Source: a virus
Taxonomy: Duplodnaviria > Heunggongvirae > Uroviricota > Caudoviricetes
Reading direction: 5' to 3' (one strand)
Length of the DNA: 40,877 bases
IMG/VR virus record: IMGVR_UViG_3300024269_000017
Below are positions 20,928-38,178 of this stretch, piece by piece. Each line of letters begins with the position of its first letter. Within the stretch, counting starts at the first letter, position 1. Both the position numbers and the translations under genes were made by a program. The notes beneath the pieces were generated by a model. The model was not told the DNA's origin, did no database searches, and saw only the letters and a list, made by a program, of their open reading frames with translations.

Positions 20928-21158
20928 ATGAAGTATTTGCTGAATGTTGTTGAAACTTACCGTGTTGATACCGTAGAAGAGGCTCTGGCTATGCGCGATG
21001 AAATGGCCGCAGCTCATGAATATGAACTTCAGTCTTTCCAGTATACTACCAAGTTTAATAAAAAGACTGAAGAAGAGTATCAGGTTGTAAAAGCTAAGAA
21101 GGTTATCAATAGTGAAAAGGAACCCAATTGTGGGGTAATGGTGCGATATGAATATTGA
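20928..21158 (+). CDS. Hypothetical protein (76 aa)
   Basis: GGAGG RBS, tight packing. Confidence 0.7.
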   Translation: MKYLLNVVETYRVDTVEEALAMRDEMAAAHEYELQSFQYTTKFNKKTEEEYQVVKAKKVINSEKEPNCGVMVRYEY

Positions 21159-21738
21159 TGCGACTTTTGAAAAGATTAGTAAATATGCTGATGACAACTT
21201 GGTCGTCATCCCAACTCGCAAAACTGCCGAGTCAGCGGGGTACGACTTTTGTGCAGCAGAAGATACGATAATTCCTCCATTTGTTGAGATGGTCGAAGAT
21301 GCAATGCTTGAGGATATTAACTCTCGCAAAGCGCAGTATGCCGATGTAAAAGAGTTTATGGCAGCTGAATACCCTTATACTCTCGACAAGATTGCGGCGA
21401 TCACTAAGCAGTATGATGCTAAGGTCGCTCTTGTGCCAACTGGTATTAAGTGTAAGATTCCGGGTGGTTATTATCTTCAGCTAAGTGTACGTAGTTCTTT
21501 GCCGCTTAAGCACTGGTTGATTCTGGGTAATGGTGTTGGTATCATCGACGCGGATTATTATAATAACCCAGATAATGAAGGACATATTTATTTCCAGATC
21601 ATTAATCTGTTACCGGTTCCCATTAAGATTCAGAAGGGTGAATGCTTCGGTCAGGGTGTTCTTCTTCCTTATGGTGTTGCTACTGGTGACAATGTAACCG
21701 CTACTCGCGAGGGCGGATTCGGTTCTACCAATGGGTAA
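21148..21738 (+). CDS. dut: Trimeric dUTPase
   Basis: SAGYDF, VRSS, GIIDADYY, REGGFGST motifs. Confidence 0.92.
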   Translation: MNIDATFEKISKYADDNLVVIPTRKTAESAGYDFCAAEDTIIPPFVEMVEDAMLEDINSRKAQYADVKEFMAAEYPYTLDKIAAITKQYDAKVALVPTGIKCKIPGGYYLQLSVRSSLPLKHWLILGNGVGIIDADYYNNPDNEGHIYFQIINLLPVPIKIQKGECFGQGVLLPYGVATGDNVTATREGGFGSTNG

Positions 21739-22219
21739 GATTATATTAGCTTTAGATCAGGCCACTCGCGACAGCGGGTGGTCTATCTTTGATAATGGAG
21801 AACTGATCGACTTCGGCCACTGGAGTTTCTCCCACGACGACGTAGCAATGCGTATCCATAGGCTTTGCTAGGAAATTGAGAAGAAAATTGAGGAATATGA
21901 ACCAGAGCTCATCGCTATTGAAAATATTTAGCTACAGTAGAACGTAGAGATGTTTCAAAAGCTAGCTTGGGTTCAAGGTGCTTTAATGCGCACCTGCGTT
22001 GCAAAAGGAGTTCCATATTAGTTAGTTCGTCCGTCCGAGTGGCGTGCGGAATGTGCTTTCCTTAAAGGCAATGATAAACATAGAGATAATCAAAAAAAAG
22101 TTGCGCAAACCTGGGTAATGGAAACCTTCGGTAAGAAATGTACGCAAGATGAATCGGATGCGATTTGTATTGGTTATGCTCTATCTAAACAAGAGGATAA
22201 CAATTGGGATTTTGAATGA
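21731..22219 (+). CDS. ruvC: RuvC-like Holliday junction resolvase (162 aa; four in-frame TAG read as Gln); absent from the ORF track
   Basis: MGKIILALDQATRDSGWS...IAIEN...PSEWR...DESDAICIG. TAG at 21869, 21929, 21938 and 22019; ends TGA 22217-22219. Confidence 0.88.
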
Positions 22220-22284
22220 TTGGGCTAATTAGGTTCACTCTTTTCTCTTGATTTTTATAATCAGAGAAAGGGGATGACTTTTGC

Positions 22285-22806
22285 ATGGAGTATGATTTAT
22301 TTGATTATTTCCTCAAATGGCTCATTCCATTCGTCTGTTCAGGTCTCTTCGCGGCAATCGTTATTCCAGTATGGAACAGATATAAGCATGGACGCGACGC
22401 AGAATTAAAAGACAAATGGAATGTATATGCACAAGAAACCAAGAATGATATTGAAGCATTCAAAATCGAATCCAAAAAGAAAGACGTTGAATTAGAAAAG
22501 AAAATTGTCGACGTCTAGACTGCACTGCTTGATAAGATCGAACAAAATACCGCTGGTATACGTCAGGCGATTTTGCAGTCTCATTTAAGAGAATTGATTA
22601 TTGATGGTAAAATGTATCTAAAGAATGAATATATTACTCTTGAGCAATTGGCAGATTATGAGGAACGTTTCTTAACTTATAAGACACTAGGCGGTAACGG
22701 ACATGTGGATCCATGGATCGCTAAAATTCGTCAATTGCCTAATACTCCTCCGGAGCAAGTGGAAGAAACCGATTTTTCCGCACGCTCTAAATATCATCAT
22801 GTGTAA
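22285..22806 (+). CDS. Membrane-anchored coiled-coil protein of the ...Y..LGGNG family (often labelled holin/lysis accessory); one TAG read-through
   Basis: ORFs 22285-22518 and 22573-22806 are in one frame, joined by TAG 22516-22518; N-terminal hydrophobic helix; YKTLGGNG motif. Confidence 0.75.
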
Positions 22807-22856
22807 AAAAAAATAAGGGAGACTAGATATTTTATCTAGTCTCCCTATTTTTTTTT
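22805..22856. terminator. Bidirectional intrinsic terminator at the convergence of the two gene arms
   Basis: A-run, stem AGGGAGACTAGATA/TATCTAGTCTCCCT, T-run. Confidence 0.9.
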
Positions 22857-22985
22857 ATGTTATATCGTCAAAAATCTAATTCGTATTAAATAAAATTTCT
22901 TTGCCAAATGTAGCAATTAAATCAGCGACCATTTCTTCTTGTTCTATAGTCATATTGACATTATAACTAAACATAGCAGCATGAA
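22855..22985 (-). pseudogene. C-terminal remnant of a phage HExxH-type hypothetical gene
   Basis: Frame reads IVHAAMFSYNVNMTIEQEEMVADLIATFGKEILFNTN(TAG)IFDDIT-TAA. The N-terminal half and HE residues expected for this family (recalled, not searched) are absent, and there is no RBS. Confidence 0.4.
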
Positions 22986-23219
22986 CTATTGACCGTATTT
23001 CCTGCGGAAAGCCTAAAATTCAGTATCGAAGTCCTTACCTTGCTCGCGCATAAGGTTGCGGGCAATCTGTTCAATTTCTGCACTTCTATTGTTTTTGGCC
23101 AAGTTCAATAGATTTACTCCCATTGGAGTATTTTGCATACCCTGTAACAGATTCATCATTACTTGTTGCGGGTTCTAACCATTTTTAATCATACCGATAA
23201 TCTAGTTCATCTGAACCAT
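22950..23219 (-). CDS. Met/Gln/Asn-rich small hypothetical protein (TAG=Gln)
   Basis: GAGGAGG RBS; MVQMN*IIGMIKNG*NPQQVMMNLLQGMQNTPMGVNLLNLAKNNRSAEIEQIARNLMREQGKDFDTEF*AFRRKYGQ (* = TAG); exact C-terminus uncertain (TAG 22986-22988 or TGA 22950-22952). Confidence 0.75.
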
Positions 23220-23236
23220 TCGTGCTTCCCCTCCTC

Positions 23237-23614
23237 TCAAAACTGGGATGCAACATCATTTAGCTATTGTTTAGTCTCCTTCGGTGGGATAATCATTTGA
23301 TTCATTGCCATTTGAATTTGCTACATTGCCTATTCAAATTCTTCTCTAGTTATAAAATTTAAATTGGCTTCATTAGTAAGAGGAATATTTTTTAGTTCGT
23401 ATACATTCAGCGCAGCCGTTCCATCCATATTGATTTGTTTAGTGTAAATTCGCTTATTAGCTAAGTCTGGAAAGTAAAACACTGAACCATCGAAGTCAAT
23501 TGAGGCGCCTCTGACTTCATCGAGAGAGGAGACTGGTCTTCCCTTTAATGCCATAGAAACGGGTCGGGAAGCCGGCTATTGAGCCTAAAAATAATTTGGA
23601 TAAGTTGGATACAT
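23237..23614 (-). CDS. Conserved phage hypothetical protein (125 aa; five TAG=Gln)
   Basis: MYPTYPNYF*AQ*PASRPVSMALKGRPVSSLDEV...DFDGSVFYFPDLANKRIYTKQINMDG...EEFE*AM*QIQ...; GAGGG RBS; ends TGA. Confidence 0.8.
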
Positions 23615-24604: not shown

Positions 24605-26575
24605 TTAAGCAACCGCCTTTGCAAGAGCTTCCCAAGTCTTGGGACCGCAAATGCCATCGACCTTAATATTTACTTTCTTCTGGAATGCGCGAACTGCATT
24701 CACAGTTTTAGTGCCATAGTCACCATCAATACCATCTTTATTTTCGCCATAAGTACCAAGATCATATCCAAGTTTCTTCAAATTAGTTTGAAGAATTTTT
24801 ACATAATCATTTTCAGCGCCTTTACGGATTGTTGGATATTTACTGAAATCAAGAGAAGGAGTGATTACGTTTTCATTATCATCATCAGAATCATCCTTAC
24901 CTTGCGCAGCTTGAAGCTTTTTAAGAAGTTCTGCATCAACAATACCATCTGCCAAGATGCCATTATCACGTTCAAATTCTTTAACTGCAGTTGCGGTTTG
25001 AGAACCAAACTGACCATCAGCCTTATCTTCAAGTTCATATCCCAAATCCATTAAGATTTCCTGAAGTTCTTCAACATCAGCGCCAGTCATACCTTCTTTC
25101 AAAGGTAGACGCTCGCCAAGATCATAATCAGTCTTTTCGCCATCAAAAACAAGGAATGTATTCATAACATAACCATACTTGCCGTCAAAATAAGTTTTGC
25201 TCCAAGTTTCTTCACGCTCGTAAACATTAACCTTCTGGCCTTTAGGAATGCGAGCAAGAATGGACGCAGAGGTTGATTTGCCAGCACGCAAATTGAGTCT
25301 TCCAGAGACTGTAGTTACTACCGCAGTAGCAATAGGCTTAGGAGCTTCTACTTCTGGTTCTTCTGCTTTATATTCTCCAGATACGTATTTAATACCCGGA
25401 AATTCATACCAATCAGTCCAAGGACGTTTATTTAAATCGGTAATGATAATACCCTTAGCAAACCCATAAGCTTCAACAACTTTACCATTACCAATATAAT
25501 AGCCAACATGACCATCCTTGCGCACAGCAAGCCCAGGCACTTCTGGGATAGTTGCAATCTTACCATATTTTAAACCCTTGCTCTTGGCATAAGTGAACAT
25601 ACTATTTGCAGATTTATCAGGGCAGTTATTTCCATATTTACTCTTGAAGGTCTTATCAGTACCAATAGATTCGATAACACCTTCACCGCCATAAGTCCAA
25701 TTGTATCCTTTACCAAGTCCCACACAATCAGCAGAAACCATCTTCTTAGAAATGTGAGATTTATATGTAGCAGTACGATCACTACCATAATGAGAAGGAT
25801 ATTGATTAGTTTTACTCTTTAAAGTAGAAGTTGTACATTTATATACACAAGTGCCATACCAATATGGCTGGCCAACCATTGCTTTCAAAAATTCTACAAA
25901 ATGTAAGTTAGTATATTTTTCATATTGAGACATAACATTCCCTCCTTGGGGTTTACCTTCCGTCGTCCCGACGATAGGTTCGCTCGGTTGGGTTACCACT
26001 ACCTCGCCATAATTCTTGCGAATTTCTGTACCTGGATAGTAGAATGCCAAAATTTCATCATATTTAACACCAATAGAAGCTGCATACTTAGCGCCGGTTT
26101 GACTCATACCAACACCATGTCCATTCTTCTTGCCCTATGAGACGGCATAATCCCACGGGTCTTCTTGGGCGATTAAATATGCTCGCTTTCCGCCCCACTT
26201 TTCCTCACTTGAGTAGGTGCGGCCGCCGTTCATAGCACTGTAATGTGCATTTGTAACGATCTTGTTATTATAATAAAGAACTTCACCCTTCGTCTCTTCA
26301 ACTGCTTGATGTGCTCTTGCATATGAATTAGAGAAGCGTGAAGCGCGGAATGCCTAATCTGTTGAGGATTTGTCGCTAATAGATCCTTTACTCTAATAGC
26401 GATATAAAGCGAAAGTGCGGGCCGCAACAGCTTGAGCTTTACCTGCTTCAAGAGCAGCATTACCTACTTCTGCGGGAACCACACCTTTTAGATATTCTTC
26501 AATATCAATTTCAATTTCATCTTTACCATAATAGTCAAGATTTTCGGAGCGAGTAAGTTTTACTTTAATTAGCAT
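24605..26575 (-). CDS. Modular endolysin: SpoIID/LytB domain + NlpC/P60 peptidase + SH3 + two PG-binding domains (656 aa; three TAG=Gln)
   Basis: EEYLKGVVPAEVG, KAQAVAARTFA, GHGVGMSQTGA, EILAFYYPG (SpoIID); ADCVG and GHVGYYIG (NlpC/P60); LNLRAGKS...IPKG (SH3); two DG.FG/YG..T..AV..F repeats. TAGs at 26393, 26354 and 26135 join ORF 26393-26575 to ORF 24605-26107. Confidence 0.88.
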
Positions 26576-26589
26576 GCTTATTCCTCCTT

Positions 26590-26625
26590 AAAAAAAGAAG
26601 AGGGTTGTTTATTACAACCCTCTTT
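26590..26625 (-). terminator. Intrinsic terminator closing the radical SAM operon
   Basis: Stem AAGAGGGTTGT/ACAACCCTCTT, then a T-run on the - strand. Confidence 0.85.
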
Positions 26626-26628
26626 ACA

Positions 26629-26943
26629 TTATTCAACAATCTTCTTTAAGCGAAGATTTACTTCACGACGGTCAATTTCTTCATTCATGGTATCAAACAA
26701 AGTATCAATCTTGAAATTATCAACCACATCGTACAAGAGCTCACCGTTCTTATCAAAAACATGTACAGCCTTAATAGTGATACCAACATAAGACTTAATA
26801 TCTTCGATGGTGTCTGCAAGACTAGCTGCTGTGTTATCAAGGTAGCAGTTAAAATCATTGCCGAGCTCGCCATTTTCAATATGGCTATAATTTACGCTAC
26901 GAACGTCATAACGTGTTGCAGAATCGTTGAAACTAATAAACAT
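26629..26943 (-). CDS. Hypothetical protein (104 aa), last gene of the rSAM operon
   Basis: AAGGAGA RBS; acidic, no recognised motif. Confidence 0.75.
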   Translation of the reverse strand: MFISFNDSATRYDVRSVNYSHIENGELGNDFNCYLDNTAASLADTIEDIKSYVGITIKAVHVFDKNGELLYDVVDNFKIDTLFDTMNEEIDRREVNLRLKKIVE

Positions 26944-26959: not shown

Positions 26960-27640
26960 TTAGTTTGCTGGTGGAGGTGGTGGAGGCGGGGGAGGATTAC
27001 ATCCACACTCCTCGGGTTTACTTCCATTCCAATCAGAGTTTTTTGGCCCTTCCTCAGGCTTTACTAAACCAAGCGCAGTTAAATAAGTTTGAGAAAGGCG
27101 AAGAGAAGCAGGACGAGACTGACGCCAAGATCTGAGTTCTTTAACAATGCTAGAAGAAGCTTGCATTAATTCAAGATAACCAGCGCCCATTTGTGCCAAT
27201 GTATATGTTGGCGCAAGAGTGTCTTGAATCAAACCAATGCGCTGGGCAATAGTCTGACTACGTTCATCTTCTGGACCATTAGACAATTTAAAGTCTAAAT
27301 AGTTACCAAATACAGAGCAATATTGATGAACAATCGCGCACCAGGCACTCATAAAATCATTCCAGGGAAGCTTATCCTCAGTAAGAATAAGAGTTGGAAA
27401 TTCATGTTCAATACGAATGAACATGTCTAAAGTGTCCTGAGAAATTGTAAATGCACCATCGTCCTCTCCCGGTTCCCAAGCTGTGATGGCATCAATTTGC
27501 TCCAATACTCTAATCATAATTAATGAAAGTTGCGGCTGAATGGCTGTTAAAATACGACCAATAGGACCCAAAGTATCAATTTCTTTCATCACATGATAGC
27601 GGGCCTCGCCATAAGAAAAATTACGAATTTCAGTTAACAT
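26960..27640 (-). CDS. Hypothetical protein (226 aa) with C-terminal ECGC and poly-Pro
   Basis: Overlaps the rSAM stop; ends KPEECGCNPPPPPPPPPAN. Confidence 0.8.
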   Translation of the reverse strand: MLTEIRNFSYGEARYHVMKEIDTLGPIGRILTAIQPQLSLIMIRVLEQIDAITAWEPGEDDGAFTISQDTLDMFIRIEHEFPTLILTEDKLPWNDFMSAWCAIVHQYCSVFGNYLDFKLSNGPEDERSQTIAQRIGLIQDTLAPTYTLAQMGAGYLELMQASSSIVKELRSWRQSRPASLRLSQTYLTALGLVKPEEGPKNSDWNGSKPEECGCNPPPPPPPPPAN

Positions 27641-29018
27641 TTAACTCCGTTACCTCCTCAAGATATTTGAATTGCACTTTCTTTTCTTCAGACAAATCTC
27701 TCCAAACTACACTCCACACCCCATGTTCTTGTAGCCATTTCATTTCAGTATAAATCATAGCATGAGCTACTGCACATACAGTAGGAATTGGAGTAATTAA
27801 ATTACGAGTGCATTCATATTGAGCACCAAGACAGGTGCCAGTACATAATTCATTAATAGGACATTGCGCACAATGCGGCAAAGATGCTTTATGCATAGAA
27901 TATGTTGAAATTAACAATTCCGGATTGATGCATTCAAATTTCAAAATTTCTTTTTCATCAGGCACCAATTTACCATAATACATATCTTCATATCCTGTGC
28001 GGTGACATGGATACATCATTAAGTCACTTACACGTAATGTAAATTGGCTTTGAATACCGCAGGTAAGACCACGTCCACAAGTTGTTAAAGGCTGACTAAA
28101 CATATTAAAACCATTTGCTTTAACTAACCAGCCTGCCATAGCATATGGATCTTTATTAATTTTATTTTCCCATACCCAATCAAGAACAAATCTCATAAAT
28201 TTACACAAAGACTGAACTTGATCATAATTCCATTCTTCATTGCGGACATGCAATAAATACAGGCTCTCCCATGGGATATTGTGTTTTTCCATCATTTCTT
28301 GGAACCACAAGAAATTTTGAGGCCATGCATCAATATTTCTACTATATACCATTGGATGCAAGCCACCATGAATCATATGAGAAAATTGAAATGCACGATC
28401 ATAGTACTCGTCATCTCGCACACCACCACCCAAATCCACATCTAGATCATGTAGATAAGGACGATTGTCTTCCATATATTTTCCATCAAAACTCGCACTA
28501 AGACCTAGAGTAATACCTATACTTTCGAATTTAGCATGAAGTTCTTTTACTCTTGCAGTTGCTTCTTCAGAACACACAAAAGTAAAATTAGTAGGAATTA
28601 CAATTTCAATTGGACGATATAAAGGATCTAAATCCTTAAAATGTTCATAAATAGTTTCTAATACTTTATATCCAACTTCTTGAGCTAATAATTCACCAGA
28701 GAAAATTTCAATGTTAGCGTTCCAATCATTATGAGTGTACCATTGTAAAATAGTTTTTAGATTTTCAATAGTACGCTCTTCGTTGAAACAATCTTCACTA
28801 AAAATCTTTTTGCGATGACGATGTAAATAACAATATCTACAACCTAAATTGCAACGCGGTGAAATAATTAACTCAATATTTTTCATTTTCTGATCTCTTG
28901 GGGTATCAATAGAGAAATCATCATAAAAATATTTCTCAATTACCCAAGCGCCCAATTCATGATTTTCTTTTTGATATTGAGACAAACCAGTATCATTTAC
29001 ATTGCAATGCTCGGCCAT
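27630..29018 (-). CDS. Radical SAM/SPASM domain protein (peptide/protein maturase type)
   Basis: CNLGCRYC; FSGEL; ASFDG; TCG...YPCHR; CAQCPINELCTGTC (CX2CX5CX3C)...TVC. Confidence 0.9.
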   Translation of the reverse strand: MAEHCNVNDTGLSQYQKENHELGAWVIEKYFYDDFSIDTPRDQKMKNIELIISPRCNLGCRYCYLHRHRKKIFSEDCFNEERTIENLKTILQWYTHNDWNANIEIFSGELLAQEVGYKVLETIYEHFKDLDPLYRPIEIVIPTNFTFVCSEEATARVKELHAKFESIGITLGLSASFDGKYMEDNRPYLHDLDVDLGGGVRDDEYYDRAFQFSHMIHGGLHPMVYSRNIDAWPQNFLWFQEMMEKHNIPWESLYLLHVRNEEWNYDQVQSLCKFMRFVLDWVWENKINKDPYAMAGWLVKANGFNMFSQPLTTCGRGLTCGIQSQFTLRVSDLMMYPCHRTGYEDMYYGKLVPDEKEILKFECINPELLISTYSMHKASLPHCAQCPINELCTGTCLGAQYECTRNLITPIPTVCAVAHAMIYTEMKWLQEHGVWSVVWRDLSEEKKVQFKYLEEVTELNVN

Positions 29019-30409
29019 GGTTTCATCGCTCCTCTATTTACTAAAATTTTATAATATCGCATCATTTCTTCCACAGCACCATTGCCTAATAAACGCAAAT
29101 AACTGCAAGGTACAATAGAAGGATTAGTTGTATAGTCTTCCTCAACGCCAATATGACAATATAATCCACAAGTCATCATAAACATTAATAAACGATCATC
29201 TTCATTATATGCATATTTACTGTTGATTTGTCCAGCGCAAGCCATTGTTACAGCCATTTGATCAAAGAAATATTTTCTAGACATAATATCGGCATGGAAA
29301 GACATAGAACCATAAGTGCGTTTCATCCAAACCTTATCATTAGTATTCATATTACATCCACTTTGCATTGCATGCTTAGTCTTCATTTTTTCATCAAGAG
29401 CTGCATTACGACAGAGACGATTACAAGTATAAATATTTCCTTCATGATCAATAGTAATATTATTCTTACTAGCGGAACAAGAATAAGAATTTTCTTGTGT
29501 CGCAATAGGATTGCCAGCTTCTGCTTGGAAAAATACTTCAGGTCCATTAAATAATTGACCAAAAAGAGGGCGACCATCATAGCAAGGTTTATCTTGTACA
29601 TTTACTCTCGGTAAAAAGCTAAGCCATTTTGCAAATGTCTCACCATCTTCTTGAGTATAATAGCCTGGGTCAACCAAAGTTGGGCAACCCGCAATTTGTA
29701 AACTAATATTTTTTTTACCTTCAATTAATTTATCGCATTCAACTTGTAAATCATTGAAGAATTTATAATACCAGTTAAATGAATCAATTCCTCTCTCATT
29801 CATAATTTTCATATAACTAACATCTAATGTAGCTTTAGTATTAATTACAAGAGAGAAATATTCCATATCTGCAGGACAACGAGTTAAAATTTCTTTCATA
29901 GTTTTAATTGTGCTCGCAGTCGCTCCAGGATGACGAGAATCATCATTAAATTCAGGTGGACCATCTAAAGACATTTGAAGATTAAAAGTGATTTTACGTT
30001 TGTGGTGAGTTGCATAAACCATCATTGGCAAGAAAAAATCTTCATAAATGCGATCGCCCAAAAGAGCATTAGTAGAAAACATTACATCTTTAGCATTTGG
30101 ATAATAGTCAAATAATGCTTCAAATGTTGCTCGCCAGTACTGACTATTAATTGTAGGTTCTGCGCCCCACAAACTTACATTTTCAATAGCATCACGGATG
30201 CCTGCGGTGACACGTTTAACATTTTCTACAAAAGTTCCATCTTCAAGTGCTTGACGAATATCTCTATTATAAGAAGCCATGCACTTTTTTTCTTTTTCAA
30301 TATAACAATATTTACATGCCATATTGCAATCTGATGACCAGTGTAGGCTGACGCTGGCTATATTAGCCAGCGCTTCGCCTAAATAATCAAGAGAAGGAAT
30401 TTGTTTCAT
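28997..30409 (-). CDS. Radical SAM protein with partial SPASM domain
   Basis: CNMACKYC; WGAEP; STN; SLDGPPEFNDDSR; CSAS...ITIDHEGNIYTC; CGLYC...PC; GAGGAG RBS. Confidence 0.9.
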   Translation of the reverse strand: MKQIPSLDYLGEALANIASVSLHWSSDCNMACKYCYIEKEKKCMASYNRDIRQALEDGTFVENVKRVTAGIRDAIENVSLWGAEPTINSQYWRATFEALFDYYPNAKDVMFSTNALLGDRIYEDFFLPMMVYATHHKRKITFNLQMSLDGPPEFNDDSRHPGATASTIKTMKEILTRCPADMEYFSLVINTKATLDVSYMKIMNERGIDSFNWYYKFFNDLQVECDKLIEGKKNISLQIAGCPTLVDPGYYTQEDGETFAKWLSFLPRVNVQDKPCYDGRPLFGQLFNGPEVFFQAEAGNPIATQENSYSCSASKNNITIDHEGNIYTCNRLCRNAALDEKMKTKHAMQSGCNMNTNDKVWMKRTYGSMSFHADIMSRKYFFDQMAVTMACAGQINSKYAYNEDDRLLMFMMTCGLYCHIGVEEDYTTNPSIVPCSYLRLLGNGAVEEMMRYYKILVNRGAMKPWPSIAM

Positions 30410-30430: not shown

Positions 30431-31924
30431 TTAATTCGAGTAATTTCTTGAATAATAATTACTAGTATAATTACCAGTTTTATTGCCAGAATTATATGTA
30501 GAATAGTTACCAGACTTATAAGTGGTATGATAACCTGTCTTATAGCTAGTATAATCCGCGGTATCATAACTATGATTGGTGCCATTATGAGAACTCTTGG
30601 CGCCACTGTCATTAGAAGAATAATAACTTCCATGATGGGAGGTATAATCCGCGCTATCATAGCTATAATTACTCGTTTTATAAGTTGTATAATGCGTTTT
30701 TGCGCTTGCATTATAACCACCATGATTACTTGTGTAATCTGCACTATCGTGAGAATATTTTCCACCATAGTGAGTAGTATAATTTGCGCCTTTTGCAGAT
30801 GCATTATAAGTAGCAAAATTGCTGCCATTATATCCGGCATAATGAGTGTACTTTCCACTGTTATATCCAGTATAATCTCCACCATTAGCAGATGCGTAAT
30901 ATGAGCCTTTGTGCGTAGCATAGTTTGTGCTATGATAGGCATAATTACCACCATTGTGGACGGAATAATGTGCATTTGCTGTTGTATAATATCCGCCAAA
31001 ATTATTAGTATTATAAGAACTTAAGTGACCAACTTTTTCACTCTAATAATGTGTACTATTATGACCAGATTTATGTGTAATATAATATGTTTCATAATGA
31101 GCAGTATTTTGCCCAGTATAATGATTAACATAATAAGAAGTTTTTACTGTGGCATTATAATTAGTATAGTTTGCAGTATCATAAGTTACATAATGAGTAG
31201 TATAATATGTGGCATTATTTGAAGTATTGTAGCCTGCATAATGGCTATATTTTTGCGCACCATTATGTGTATCAAATTCAGTACTAAATTGATTACCAAA
31301 ATGATCTGGACAATGTGAAGTATTATAAATTTGATAGTGCGTAGTATAATAATTAGTATAATACGCTTTATGGTTACTACTATAATCCGCAGACTTATGA
31401 AGACGATTGCCCGTATAATAAGTTCCATGGAACTAATAATGAGCACTCTTATACGTTACATAATTTGTTGTATTATGTTCATAATTTCCACCAAAATAAG
31501 AATAATAATGAGTACCATTATGAGTAGTATAATAATCTGCATAATGATTCGTATAATAACTTGCATTATGACCATATCGATGACTGTTAAAATACTCAGT
31601 ATAATAAGAATTATGCCAAGCTGTCCAGTTATTAATATCATATCCGGTATAATAATTTACTAAATGCCCTGTATAATAAGCATCATTATATCCAGATTTA
31701 TGACCTGATTTATAAGATGAAAGATGCCCGTTATAATATGTACCTTTTTCACCATTGTGATGGGTAGCATAATGTCCACTATAATGTGAACTTAAATGTC
31801 CGCTCAAGTGCCCTGAATAATATGCAGGGCAATGAGCAGCTTCTTGGGCCTAAATTGCAGTTAATGGATTATTTAAGTCAGAAGGAATAATTTTATTTCC
31901 TTTGACTGCTGTTGAAGTCGCCAT
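30431..31924 (-). CDS. Tyr/His/Asn/Ser/Thr/Gly tetrapeptide-repeat protein B (497 aa; three TAG=Gln); mostly missed by the ORF track
   Basis: GGAGGA RBS, ATG 31924. MATSTAVKGNKIIPSDLNNPLTAI*AQEAAHCPAYYSGHLSGHLSSHYSG... is open (TAG at 31850, 31433, 31043 only) to ...YYSRNYSN-TAA 30431. About 90 Tyr by hand count. Confidence 0.85.
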
Positions 31925-31946
31925 TGTGGATTATTCCTCCTTTTTA

Positions 31947-33563
31947 TTAAGTTACAGTAACATTATGCGATTTATTACCAGCACGATAAGCGGTATAATT
32001 AGAAGTATTATAAGTGCCATAATTAGCAGTATAATAACCTGTCTTATAATTACTATGGTTACCACTATTATAACCACTCCAGTGAGAATTACGAGCAGCA
32101 TTTTGACCACTATTATAAGAGCTATCATGTCCACTCTTATTACCTGAATAATGACCACTATTATATCCGCTCCAGTGAGAACGCTGTGCAGTTAAATTAG
32201 AGTTATTATATGTTGCATAGTTACCGCTTAAATGACTTGTATAATAACCACTATTATAACCACTCCAATGATTATTATAAGTGGAATAATTTGAACCATT
32301 ATGACTGGTGTAATGACCACTTAAATGTCCTGTATAATTACCATTATTTTCAGAGCTTCTATGAGAAGTATATACAGTCTTATTATGATTAGTGTAATGC
32401 GTAGCATAATAACCACTTAAATGCCCTGTATAATCACCTGCATTGTGAGATACATAATGAGCTCTATAACCAGTTTGATATCCCATATTATGACTAGAAT
32501 ATCGTCCTGTATAATGAGTAGTATAATTATTACTATTATAAGTTGAATAATGATTATTTTTTCCTGTGTATTGAGCAGTATAATTAGAGCTTAAATAGCC
32601 AGAATTGTATCCAGTATAATTAGCTGCATCACGACTAGTGTATTGAGTACCATTATGCCCTGAATAATGCGTTTTTTGTCCTGCTTTATTTGTACTATTA
32701 TAGGTCGAATAATGAGTTGTATAATTAGTAGTTTTTGCTCCACTATTATAGGTGGAATAATGAGAGCTTCTGTGAGCATAATCATATGTTTCAAAATGAC
32801 TATCATAAGCAACAGCACGGTGAGATTTTGCTCCAATATGATAAGTGGTATATTGAGTACCGTAATAGCCAGTATAATGACTATTTTGATTAGTATAATG
32901 ACTATAATAATAATTATTATAATTAGTACTCTTATAAGAACTATCATGTGAACTATAATAACCACTATAATATTCTGCATTATGACTTTCAAATTCTGCC
33001 GCTCTATGATAAAAATGACTTTTTTCAGTAGTATTGCGAGTTGTATAATGAGTTGCATAATAAGTAGCATTTCTACCGCTGTAATGTGGAGCAAAATACG
33101 TATTATAATGAGCTTCACGATGAGCAGAATAATAAATACCACATGCTGCCCAGTTATCAAAATATTGCCAATTACTATGATGAGATCCATAGAAATCGGA
33201 ATTATGAGTTGTATAATAGCTACTATAATGACTACTCTTATAACTACTTTCTCTGCCGCTATAATATGTTGCATTATATGAAGTATATTGTGTTGCATAA
33301 ACCGTAGATTTATGCGCATTTAAATATCCTGCATTATAAGCGGCACAACCGTAATTGATAGAACCAGCTTGGCTATCAATAACATCCGATAATTCTTTAG
33401 GCGAATTATAATTTAATTTAGAATTATAAACTGCAATAGGATCATGTTGCCAATTATATTTGGCTAAACCCAATTTATCAGTTCTAAAATTATCAATTCG
33501 ATTTCGAACTAATAAATAATCAGAATATGCAGTTTTCTAACCCGTTGAAACTGGTACCGCCAT
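31947..33563 (-). CDS. Tyr/His/Asn/Ser/Thr/Gly tetrapeptide-repeat protein A (538 aa; one TAG=Gln at codon 9)
   Basis: AAGGAGGG RBS, ATG 33563. MAVPVSTG*KTAYSDYLLVRNRIDNFRTDKLGLAKY... is continuous with track ORF 31947-33473. About 90 Tyr by hand count. Confidence 0.88.
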
Positions 33564-33592: not shown

Positions 33593-33621
33593 ATTATAAC
33601 AAAAATTTTTATCTATGTCAA
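33593..33621 (-). promoter_or_regulatory. Consensus sigma70 promoter driving the repeat-protein/rSAM operon
   Basis: On the - strand: TTGACA (33621-33616), 17 bp, TG-T-TATAAT (33598-33593). Confidence 0.85.
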
Positions 33622-33655
33622 AAAAAAATATGGCCGCAATTAAGCGGCCATATTT
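33621..33655 (-). terminator. Intrinsic terminator after the tail fibre gene
   Basis: AAATATGGCCGC/GCGGCCATATTT stem, with a T-run running into the promoter -35. Confidence 0.85.
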
Positions 33656-33843
33656 ACTATAAAATTTTAACATAAAGTTAAAATATATATATTCACATTT
33701 ACCGCAATCACCATGGGTTGCGTGATGTGGGATTTATCGGACAACATTCAAAATTTAATGTCTATGAAGTAATAGATAAATACCACCAAATCTGTTAAAC
33801 AGCAATTTTTCAATCAATTGGTGTGTATTTTATATAAAAATTA

Positions 33844-36800
33844 TTAACGAACTTTAATCCAGATTCGTCCATTTACTTCAACATTACCAGTGCCCCAAGT
33901 CTCATAATTAGGGATTTCAGAAACAGTGCCAACAATACGATCAGGATACATCATAATTTCTTCTCTTGTCATTAAACTAACAGTGCCATTCGGACCAGTA
34001 CATACTGCTGCACCAAGAGGATAAGAATTTCTATCTTCATAAGTATATGCTAAAGCACGTCCAGCAACCGCCAAAGGAGTTTTACATTCGTTTGTTTCAC
34101 CCATAGCAGAACCAAAAGTATCAGATACAATACTTGCCCCAGCCTACAGTCTCTCTGTTGAAATTTTCATTTCTCCAGAAATATCTTCTATTACCACTCG
34201 GCCTGGCTCAACTGTTTCTGCTTTTCTAAATTCAGCATAGTCATTCCAAACAGCATTATATACTTTAGTACCATAAATAGCTCCAGCAACACCAAGACCA
34301 CCAGATACTTTTAATGCACCAGAAGTAGTATTTGTTGCTGCGGTAGTATTTGTAATAGATACTACACCAGTAAATGTTTTAGTACCAGCAAAAGATTGTG
34401 TGCCGGTAGTTACAACGCCAGCTTGATTTGTTGCAGCATTAGGAACATATAATGTAGCAACGCCAGTGCCAGTAGCAATACTTAATCCACCAGTATAAGT
34501 CGGAGTATGATAATAGTTAGTGTTAGTATTTGGATTTGCTGGCATAGTTACCTTTAAGTCTACTCCAGCGACAGTACCAATAGTACTTGTTTGTCCCCAT
34601 GCTAAAGTAGGGCCGCTATTAGTTACCGCTTTCCAAGAAGGAGCGGCAGAAGAGCCACCACTTGTTAAAATCTAACCCGCAGTTCCTGTACCCAAAGAAG
34701 CAAGAGCAGAAGAACTTGATGCATATACTAATCCATATGCTGTCCAAGATGTTTTTCCAGTACCGCCGTGACCGACCCCTAAAGTGCCAGTAATACCAGG
34801 ACGTGGGCTCGCCGCAAATACGTTAGCCGCGGTAGTAGAGCCAAGATTAACCAACATGGATGGATTTGAAGTAATTCCAGTACCACCATAAGCTACAGCA
34901 AGAGCATTGGTTAATTGTAAAGTAGGAATGGAGGTTGTACCATAAAATGTTACATCTTTATTATCCATTCCAATTCGCATTGCATTATTAAAAGTTGCTT
35001 CTGTGCTGGTGTTAGTTCCAGAACCAGAGGTTTGAAGCACAAAATAATTTGCATTAGATGATCCAGTTCCTAAAACACCCGCACGCCATTCTGCCCCATA
35101 ATTGGTAGTTTGATGTTCCCAAATAATAAACTTATCAGTATCACCAGTTAAAATACGAATATCGTCATTAAAGGTTTTTGCACCAGCAAATGTTTGCGCG
35201 CCAGTGGTGACAACGCCTCCTTGCGTAGCATTTGCTGCATCAAGCGTAACAGTTCTATTTTTTCCTGCGACAGTAATAGATAAAGTTTCACCATTAGCTC
35301 CTGCAGTAGAACTAAAGTTGCTAAATAGTGAGCTCGCATCACAAGATGTTATTATACCACCGTTTAAATAAACTGGTACACTTGCACTACCAGCTGTTCC
35401 AGTTAATGCTTTAATTTCACCACTAGACATATAGACAGGCTGAGTAGTTGAACCAAGAGTGGAGGATGATGCTGTTAATGTACCAGCATTTAAGAAGATT
35501 GGTTTTGCGCTTGCACCAACACTGGCGCCAGAAGCCTTAATTATACCATCTTCCATATAAATTGGTTTAGTCGCGCTACCAATATCTGAGGTAGACGCTG
35601 TGATTGTACCACTATTTAAAAATACTGGATTATTAGATGCACCAACAGTAGAGGACGATGCTGTTAATGTACCAGCATTTAGATACATAGGAACAATACC
35701 AGATCCAACCGTAGAAGTGGATGCTGTTGCTGCACCATCTGCTGCGATATATACAGGCTTTACTCCAGAACCAATTGCAGTATCATTGGTATGAACTACA
35801 AACTGATATCCCGTAGTAGATGCTGCGACATTAGGTAAATTAAATACGTTACTATTCGCCGTACCAGAATCAATGCGAACGTCATAATCAGCAGTAGAAG
35901 CATTGGTCTTATGAAAGTCTAAATAACGACCAATTTCACTTACACCAGATCCATTAACAGTAACAAAACCATTGTTAAACCATGCGCCAGATTTTGGTAA
36001 AGTAATAGTAATAGTTTCATCCGCGCCCTTATTGGTATGACCATAAGTATCAACAGTAATCTGCGGAATGGCAAAAGAGGTTGCGGCTCCAGTTAATGTT
36101 GTAACAGTATTGCCGCTAGTATAACCACTACTTGGTCCCTTCTTAGCATGCTTTGCGTCATAGGTGACTCCGTTAGTTCCAGCAGTACCAGTTAAAACAA
36201 CAATATCATCATCTGTTGCTGTTGCACTAATATTAATCTATACATTCTTTTTAGTGACAGTAATTTTACCATTGGTATCTTGGCTAATAGTATCAATAAA
36301 AGCGGATGCATTACCTGATGTACCTGGGCTAGACACAGCAGTTTGAAGAACCTTGTAGCTACCTTCATCACCAAGCAATTCCCAGCGACTATTGTAACTA
36401 TTCCAAACATATTCTTTTGTGCCATAAATAACCACATCGCCAGCTAAACGATCATCGGGCCAAGTATATCCAGAAATTTTAGGATCAGTATTACTTTGAT
36501 TTGTGATAGCTACGGTAGCAACACCGATATAATGCATTGCATTTGTTAAACCAAGATTAATACGTAGCTGCTCGGCAGTAATTGAACCTCCAAGAGAAAC
36601 ACTTGTGCCTGCAATATTAACTGAAGAATTAACTAATTTATTATTAGCAATTGATCCCGCTAACATAGCATTGGTAACTTTACCAGTGCCAATAGTAGTA
36701 GTGATGTTCCAATCGGCACTTCCATTAGAAGAGCCTGTGCCACCTACGTCTCCACTTAAAGTAACTGCTCGTGATGCATTAAGTTTAGAAGCAGAAGTGG

Positions 36801-38178
36801 CATTACCACTGAATGTAGTTGCATATACAGTTCCTTGCGCATAAATATTCTTCCATCTAGCAGTATCTGTACCAAGACTATATGTATTATGTGCAGAAGG
36901 ATTAATATGTTGAGCAGTGGTAGTTCCACCAATTGTAGCACCACTCGCACCAATTTCTGCCTTTTTAGCAACAATAGTTTCACCAAATGTTGCACCACCA
37001 GTAACGGTTAATGCTTGTGTAGCATGATTACTACCAATAACTGCTGTTCCAGTACTTGTTAACTTTGCAGAAGCAGTAATATATGGAGCAGAAATAGTGC
37101 CTTCAGAACTAATATTTCCAACCGCTGCAATAGTAGAAGATGCACTTATAGCACCAGTAAAAGAAGATGTTTCAGTTACAGCAAGAGTGCTTTGTAATGT
37201 GGTTGCGCCAGTTGCTTTTAAAGTTCCATTAGCAACAATATTTTTTAAATTTGCAACGCCAGCTCCACTAACATAATATGTTGTACCACCAAAATATAAA
37301 GAAGTGCCTGACGCTACAGTTGTTTTATTATTTAAAGCTACTGTATTAGTAAAAGTAGTAGCTCCATTGAAAGCCGCAGTTCCAGAGGCGGTCAAATTAG
37401 AAGCAATAGCTACAGGAACCGCTGCGATGTTTAATGTATTTGTTGTGTCAGAAAGAGTTTGATAAATAATAAATTGAGAGGCTTTATTATCAAAGATACC
37501 TCTTGTTACAGAAGTTGCTTTCATTTGCCATCCATGAGAACTGTTTTTCACATTAACATAAGCATCTCCACTAGAAGTGTTGATTGTTAATGGACCAGTC
37601 ATCGTATCGCCATCAATATTCACATATAAATCATCTAAAGCAGCTTCACAGTTTGTTAAAAAATTATTAACTGTTAAAATCGGACTATTATTGTGATATA
37701 AATTGCTAGCATCACTTGTATATAAATACAACCCTCCAACTTGAGGATTTGTAGATTCTGCCAAACTTAAAATTGCCTTACCAGCGCTATCTTTAATAGC
37801 TTGCCCACTACTAAGAGTGACACCAGAAGACAGAACAGGGGAGGACTTAAAAGTCTTCACTCCATAAATTTCTTGAGCAACTAAGCTCAAAACACCAGAA
37901 TGGTCTGATGAAGCATATGGCAATTCTCTAATTGCCTCTTGACCACCAACTTCTAATTTAATACAGCTGGCTTTTTCATCGTCGCCATCTGCTTTCACAA
38001 AAGTGATTACAGGCGCACCTGTTAATAAATCTGCGTACTAAGCATTTAACGGCACTCTCTCTGTGGCAGTATCAATATAAAACTTACCATTATCAGGAGT
38101 AAAATAAGCATAACCTTCAGTTATTTTTTGATTACCTAAGCTTGCCGCAGGACCTTTAAAAATCTTAAAAAGAGCCAA
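33844..38178 (-). CDS. Long tail fibre / receptor-binding protein (1444 aa; four TAG=Gln)
   Basis: TTG 38178 with GGGAGG RBS (MALFKIFKGPAASLG...). One frame runs through TAGs at 38038, 36238, 34672 and 34144, joining four track ORFs. T/S/G/A-rich; EIGRYLDFH...DYDVRI and GTAG*ILTSGG fibre motifs. Confidence 0.85.
35340..35760 (-). repeat. Seven ~21-aa (63-bp) tandem repeats in the tail fibre
   Basis: Units xP(V/I/M)(Y/F)(L/M/I)xxGx(L/I/A)xA(S/L)xxx(V/L/I/A)Gxxx, e.g. VPMYLNAGTLTASSSTVGASN and KPIFLNAGTLTASSSTLGSTT. Confidence 0.8.

Follow-up and report, generated by a model that had tools for sequence, protein, structure and literature searches.

Radical-SAM enzymes that mature peptides are known from small natural products of bacteria and from one bacterial defence effector. 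In the HXS system (HxsA-D; TIGR03976-03979; PMC13128918) two radical-SAM enzymes and a small helper mature a bacterial, periplasmic effector with five three-residue repeats and a peptidoglycan-binding domain. Targets of the CXXX-repeat systems (TIGR04114/04115/04117) have a period of four with Cys at position 1 and an rSAM/SPASM neighbour, and in the TvgA/TvgB poly-cyclopropylglycine system (PMC9062424) a radical-SAM enzyme acts repeatedly on the exact four-residue TVGG repeat of a short peptide accompanied by a peptidase and transporter. The substrates of the ranthipeptide synthases CteB (5WGG) and PapB (NF047865) are also short peptides, and the first auxiliary cluster of CteB has an open site that is bound by the substrate Cys (PMC6231123). 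Among virion proteins, S74 (PF13884) is a domain that cleaves itself and serves the oligomerisation of tail fibres (PMC12143355), the known examples of which have homotrimeric beta-rich folds.

Here we describe a six-gene cassette encoding two repeat proteins, A and B, and two radical-SAM enzymes, rSAM1 and rSAM2, within a 40,877-nt stretch of DNA (the window) that is the terminal part of a 168.7-kb virus record. The cassette resembles the HXS, TvgB and CXXX systems in its combination of radical-SAM enzymes and repeats, but belongs to none of them. [quoted passage not shown] A and B differ from CXXX-repeat targets in that Cys is not at every fourth residue (0.4% of tails); they match no target model, and the enzyme model TIGR04115 gives 25.6 bits against a cut-off of 350. 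In contrast to TvgA, the units are degenerate and there are no export genes. CteB and PapB are the best sequence matches to the cassette enzymes, and rSAM2 shares with them a seven-Cys SPASM domain and an open auxiliary site, but the cassette enzymes have no evident N-terminal extension of RRE length, score 48-49 against 340 bits, and have a 500-residue pair as candidate substrate; ranthi- and sactipeptides have several donor Cys and their matching acceptors in a short core, whereas A and B have one conserved Cys per chain. The likeness to S74 tail fibres lies in genomic position and in the S74 start motif that closes the tail in two loci, whereas searches of Pfam, NCBIfam, PHROGs and PDB sequences with A, B and the head alignment gave no significant match. 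Literature searches found no paper describing an A/B-rSAM system, which we conclude is real, undescribed and probably a radical-SAM-matured two-chain virion fibre.

The cassette and its genomic setting

The minus-strand late genes of the window are intact open reading frames only when TAG is read as Gln; the standard code and TGA as Trp were both ruled out, A, B, the tail fibre and the endolysin being interrupted by TAG only. Late genes typically carry TAG codons in recoded phages (10.1101/2021.08.26.457843). A 91-nt tRNA with a CUA anticodon (genome positions 33636-33726), amid a cluster of 33 tRNAs, is likely a TAG suppressor. The genome also has a large gene of tape-measure type and an endolysin of Firmicutes type, the latter suggesting the host. 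Small genes on both strands at the convergence point (21148-23614, including a RuvC-like gene and a 125-aa gene after the holins) have several TAGs, and the plus-strand replication genes upstream of them have none. Outside the window, the minus strand at genome positions ~63000-73800 has few clear open reading frames and about 25 promoters close to the perfect sigma70 consensus, lying 60-900 nt from one another, an arrangement suggestive of an early array for host takeover or of a polymerase sponge.

A and B lie between the tail-fibre gene and the lysis genes, within a unit that has its own promoter and the gene order A, B, rSAM1, rSAM2, a 226-aa accessory protein and a 104-aa protein. Upstream is a 1444-aa tail-fibre-like protein (33844..38178, on the minus strand like all window features below; TAG read as Gln) with an NDYAE-type C-terminal domain, which precedes the cassette in many unrelated viruses too. 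A terminator-like hairpin of 12 pairs with a T-run (33626..33655) ends the tail-fibre transcript, and a perfect sigma70-type promoter, TTGACA-17-TATAAT (33593..33621), stands 58 nt upstream of gene A; a matching site precedes A in the recoded relatives L002, L003, L006, L007, L009 and L190 (loci are given L numbers). The final gene of the unit, encoding the 104-aa protein (26629..26943), is present in a minority of loci. A terminator-like hairpin in the gap between cassette and endolysin (26598..26624) is a pattern match only, of a kind found at chance level over the region. The downstream endolysin (24605..26575; TAG read as Gln) has SpoIID, NlpC/P60-like, SH3 and peptidoglycan-binding domains; all three of its TAGs are within the N-terminal SpoIID domain, and without recoding a 500-aa open reading frame minus this domain still starts at 26107.

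Both rSAM1 (470 aa; 28997..30409) and rSAM2 (462 aa; 27630..29018) have an intact CxxxCxxC motif, 97-100% conserved in both enzymes, and match PF04055, but fall far under every NCBIfam cut-off; PADLOC gave only weak viperin core matches. rSAM1 is a distant paralogue. Seven Cys of rSAM2 (320, 338, 383, 386, 392, 396 and 415) align with those of CteB as a full SPASM set, whereas rSAM1 has only three conserved C-terminal Cys (311, 329 and 418) and therefore probably one auxiliary cluster. The accessory protein (226 aa; 26960..27640) is confidently modelled as an all-helical bundle without strands, and as a candidate RRE (PqqD-like winged helix) it has no clear structural match; fold searches returned generic helical bundles only (best Z 9.3, rmsd 4.1, 136 aligned residues). 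Six loci have two copies, one after each enzyme, which suggests a subunit role.

Among 50%-identity clusters, 429 are related to rSAM1 at E up to 1e-30. We collected 116 distinct cassette loci, mostly viral, with only a handful of bacterial genome bins among the matches listed. Both enzymes are present in all 65 long loci and the accessory protein in 45 of the 65; a head-repeat gene was detected in 52, most of the others being a variant with a longer head. When the search was seeded with the repeat proteins five contigs were found, of which the fifth ends too early to tell; the four informative ones all carry both enzymes (two are new, two were already among the loci). This co-occurrence supports the link between the repeats and radical-SAM chemistry that a preliminary description of the sequence had drawn.

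Register and residue rule of the repeat tails

Repeat protein A (538 aa; 31947..33563; one TAG, at codon 9, read as Gln) consists of two head modules (residues 1-72), an anchor Cys73 (33345..33347) that is invariant in the A alignment, and a tail whose 466 residues make up 119 units. Repeat protein B (497 aa; 30431..31924; three TAGs read as Gln, at codons 25, 164 and 294) has one head module (residues 1-31), an anchor Cys32 (31829..31831) that is at least 90% conserved, and a tail likewise of 466 residues and 119 units. The preliminary description proposed a four-residue register in both proteins over roughly 450 aa, with occasional three-residue slips, and this register is real and far beyond chance. 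In the autocorrelation check that it had suggested (residue identity against 1000 shuffles), z is 5.7, 6.6 and 6.8 at lags 4, 8 and 12 in A and 3.7, 8.8 and 4.2 in B, with negative values at lags 2, 6 and 10. The motif [YHN]x[ST][GASN] occurs 49 times in each protein where about 20 are expected, the tetrapeptides quoted as examples are present, and the measured span is 466 residues in each. There are 12 slips in A and 10 in B, and because of these the effective period is 3.9, not 4 (Fourier peak at 3.9 in A and 3.85-3.95 in B); in the C-terminal half of A they recur every 31 residues, forming a 31-residue (7x4+3) super-repeat, and slips sit at identical places in the window proteins and L002. 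In the DNA, in line with what had been noted, long exact repeats are absent and the arrays are short and imperfect (TRF scores of 77 or less, the longest exact repeat being 21 nt), and the suggestion of selection on the protein pattern is borne out by a dN/dS of 0.10-0.11 relative to L002, purifying for both genes.

The heads are composed of a 35-residue module, W...G..I.....E.R.N.D, present once in B, twice in A and in about three copies in single-gene lineages, and a nearly invariant Cys closes the head and sets the register. A shared leader motif G(Q/N)K....SD reported earlier is indeed part of this module but is not conserved as such. Repeat blocks were also said to begin at a lone Cys, which is correct for C73 of A and C32 of B, but C141 and C205 lie within the tails and keep to the register. 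Because Cys falls on the 'x' of the (Y/H/N)-x-(S/T)-G motif as first written, the natural frame is shifted from it by one residue. Head boundaries are those of seed HMMs, iterated head HMMs having drifted into the repeats. Structure prediction was another suggested check: AlphaFold2 (monomer, A alignment) predicts the head modules of A to be helical with pLDDT of about 80-90, and a low-confidence helix runs on into the tail (pLDDT 45-57). Fused longer forms of the head were sought and none was found, which is weak evidence.

In 31 slip-free tails (3714 residues), picked by an HMM trained on the same data, 99% of position-1 residues are D/N/Y/L/K/H/E/R/Q/C/F/W, with G, S and T absent and Ala at 0.1%. 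Position 2 is mainly S/T/A/G, position 3 G/T/S (Gly 27%, Thr 27%, Ser 20%, with interchange of Gly, Thr, Ser and Asp) and position 4 Y/V/D/H/N, and the positional bias persists with a fixed register and no filter. All 21 internal Cys of slip-free homologous tails are at position 1, and in the window, where there are two Cys per tail and one conserved Cys per chain, all four are confined to one phase of the register. Aromatic-x-S/T triads number 77 in A and 73 in B against 37 expected, or 0.63-0.66 per unit, but the median among 68 tails is 0.30 and the minimum 0.05, such that the window is the aromatic extreme; the figure falls to 0.05 per unit in the tails of L015 and L051, whose neighbours are the same two enzymes. 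Tail composition ranges from Asp-rich through Tyr/His-rich to Leu/Thr, with His at 0-16%, and about 10% of 2991 units are without any S/T, aromatic or Cys. The conserved rule of the tails is thus the Cys-anchored position-1 pattern and not aromatic content, and its basis may lie in structure alone, for instance in Asx caps and in large residues that face outward. This rule, the aromatic-free members, the A/B length matching and the S74 and Hint ends are new in the present analysis.

A proposed two-chain virion fibre

The tails of A and B vary from 28 to 466 aa across 49 loci, and their lengths are correlated (Spearman 0.91), with 21 pairs within four residues of each other against 2.8 when shuffled, although about 20 of the 49 differ by more than 10%. 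Independent contrasts on the enzyme tree give r=0.73, with 41 of 47 of the same sign. In the window the tails measured from the anchor Cys match exactly, at 466/466 residues and 119/119 units, and slips are shared at units 75, 91, 99 and 107. Tail identity within a locus equals the unit-shuffled control or is slightly above it, and heads cluster by type across viruses (10 label changes against about 30 shuffled, with a few A/B labels mis-assigned by the labelling rule); by these sequence comparisons the tails are therefore not recent duplicates of each other. The length match is most simply read as two chains that lie alongside each other throughout. When A and B are compared unit by unit, covariation is weak (z up to 3.4, spread over more than one offset). 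Complex prediction for the A and B pair of L013, a natural table-11 homologue, scored 0.29 against a mark of 0.32, which gives no verdict and does not count as evidence here.

Several homologues have ends that are suggestive of a virion role. Tails in L016 and L228 end in an S74 start motif, the remainder of PF13884 in L016 being a nearby open reading frame (E 1e-7), and four loci have a B protein with a Hint-like domain at its end. L016 and L228 have a split S74 chaperone (L016:9596-9853; L228:8779-10510), in which the cleavage motif is on the repeat protein and the rest is a separate gene. Of the 65 long loci, 28 have a tail-fibre NDYAE C-terminal domain near the cassette, which in many cases stops just short of it. 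The TAG codons in A and B are a further sign of a virion role, being typical of late genes. The window itself has the tail-module position, and the S74 and Hint ends are found only in homologues. Together with the length match these ends point to a co-linear A/B virion fibre, and the 'leader' would therefore probably be a structural head that is retained.

We propose, with a probability of about 0.6, that A and B form one thin virion fibre of paired tails, matured by the two radical-SAM enzymes. The helical head modules of the two chains would dock them together and onto the phage tail, and the repeat tails would run parallel, side by side and unit for unit, which would account for their matched lengths, with positions 2-3 (S/T/G/A) forming a tight chain-to-chain face; were it helical, the rod would measure about 60-68 nm. 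The strict co-occurrence suggests that the enzymes, each probably paired with a helical accessory subunit, mature the two chains ahead of assembly or as it proceeds. At the conserved anchor Cys we lean slightly towards a thioether of the CteB/PapB type, since it fits the open auxiliary-cluster site in CteB-type SPASM domains. The beta-carbons of Asp, Asn, Tyr, Lys and Arg are radical sites in PapB, NxxcB, dynobactin, streptide and darobactin chemistry. Because the position-1 residue set matches these sites, an iterative chemistry fits as well, and we tentatively suggest repeated H-abstraction at the position-1 C-beta, giving either an alpha,beta-unsaturated residue or a cross-link whose partner is a hydroxyl or an atom of the backbone, and stiffening a tail that may otherwise be poorly structured. 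That most of the A/B units (100+) are radical-modified at unactivated carbons without cysteine, in widespread two-chain virus fibres of up to about 470 residues per chain, is a more doubtful extension; if true, the fibre would be an enzyme-made structural polymer with its length set by gene length. If such maturases do build a virion fibre, this would add a new stage to the assembly of viruses, one found in hundreds of sequence clusters. Direct tests can start from the position-1 rule and the length-matched pair, the chemistry should be accessible in short natural members, whose tails have 40-90 aa (84/84 in L013 and 40/40 in L200), and sequence-tolerant, highly iterative enzymes would interest peptide chemists. 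Against a strict two-chain rod are the single-gene lineages with a three-module head and units of 3, 5, 7 or 9 residues, and against the fibre is the host-type consensus promoter of the unit, which lies outside the structural transcript. S74 chaperones normally serve trimers, which bears on the stoichiometry.

A simpler virion fibre, in which the enzymes act only on the anchor Cys or the head junction, or assist assembly, and the repeat is an unmodified small-residue zipper or turn spiral, is a less probable explanation but one to be taken seriously. The units devoid of S/T, aromatic or Cys and the wide variation in composition around a solely invariant anchor Cys favour it, as does the low-confidence helix predicted into the tail, and a period of 3.9-4.0 is geometrically possible for a tight right-handed supercoil. 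However, Ala, the best helix former, is nearly excluded from position 1, chains rich in S/T/G/N/Y/H are poor helix formers unaided, and both enzymes are kept in all long loci. The preliminary description favoured instead a cyclophane at each aromatic-x-S/T triad, cross-linked as in triceptides. This would suit the window, where such triads are at twice the chance level and three-residue x-S/T-H slips resemble His-Xaa-Ser, and there are weak matches to ChlB and cyclophane-synthase models; but homologues that are near aromatic-free keep orthologous enzymes, scores are 13-30 bits against cut-offs of 310-450 (XyeB/GrrM/FxsB/YhhB/AmcB) and the best structural relative is CteB, so that as the mechanism of the family it is very improbable.

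We give equally little credence to one enzyme being a processive epimerase that places D-Ser or D-allo-Thr at position 3, in a repeating L/D turn helix as in proteusins. Such chemistry is independent of the side chain and suits both the variable composition and the interchange at position 3, but small residues at one face give the same pattern, the nearest relatives are of the thioether type, and, if every conserved Cys is a cluster ligand, neither enzyme is left with one that could donate H. Least probable is a role outside the virion, be it as an effector that modifies the host or excludes superinfection in the manner of HXS, or as a source of numerous small peptides. The architecture does parallel HXS (two rSAM, small helper, repeat effector; PMC13128918) and the consensus promoter is the unit's own, but no signal peptide, peptidoglycan-binding domain, protease or transporter was seen for the A/B system, TAG codons would truncate A and B before the code switch, and the length matching, S74/Hint ends and tail-gene position would be left unexplained. 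Two further alternatives had been offered earlier: a His-rich metal sponge is unlikely given the range of His content across the family, and an amyloid-like fibre came closest, although the fibre that we favour is a length-matched A/B virion fibre and not amyloid.

Distribution and variant lineages

Sequence clusters of the family derive from gut, sediment and other habitats. It is absent from the cultured phages searched, which gave only distant Campylobacter and Pseudomonas rSAMs in other contexts. TAG-bearing substrates with TAG-free enzymes are seen here and in L002, L003, L006, L190, L040 and L092, but TAG-gating of substrates alone was rejected as a family rule, many recoded relatives having TAG in their enzymes (185 TAG against 715 CAA/CAG in the enzymes of recoded relatives). 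L017, L024 and related environmental contigs carry the cassette in GC-rich viruses, and it is therefore not limited to recoded gut phages.

Among the variants, L019, L023, L028, L232, L243, L245, L241 and L040 are single-gene lineages with a three-module head and the same enzymes, in which the units are of 5 (x-x-S-N-G), 7, 9 or 10 residues. We also note that a viral contig, L080, encodes a His-Xaa-Ser-like repeat protein (L080:4071-4838) about 2 kb upstream of the enzyme pair.
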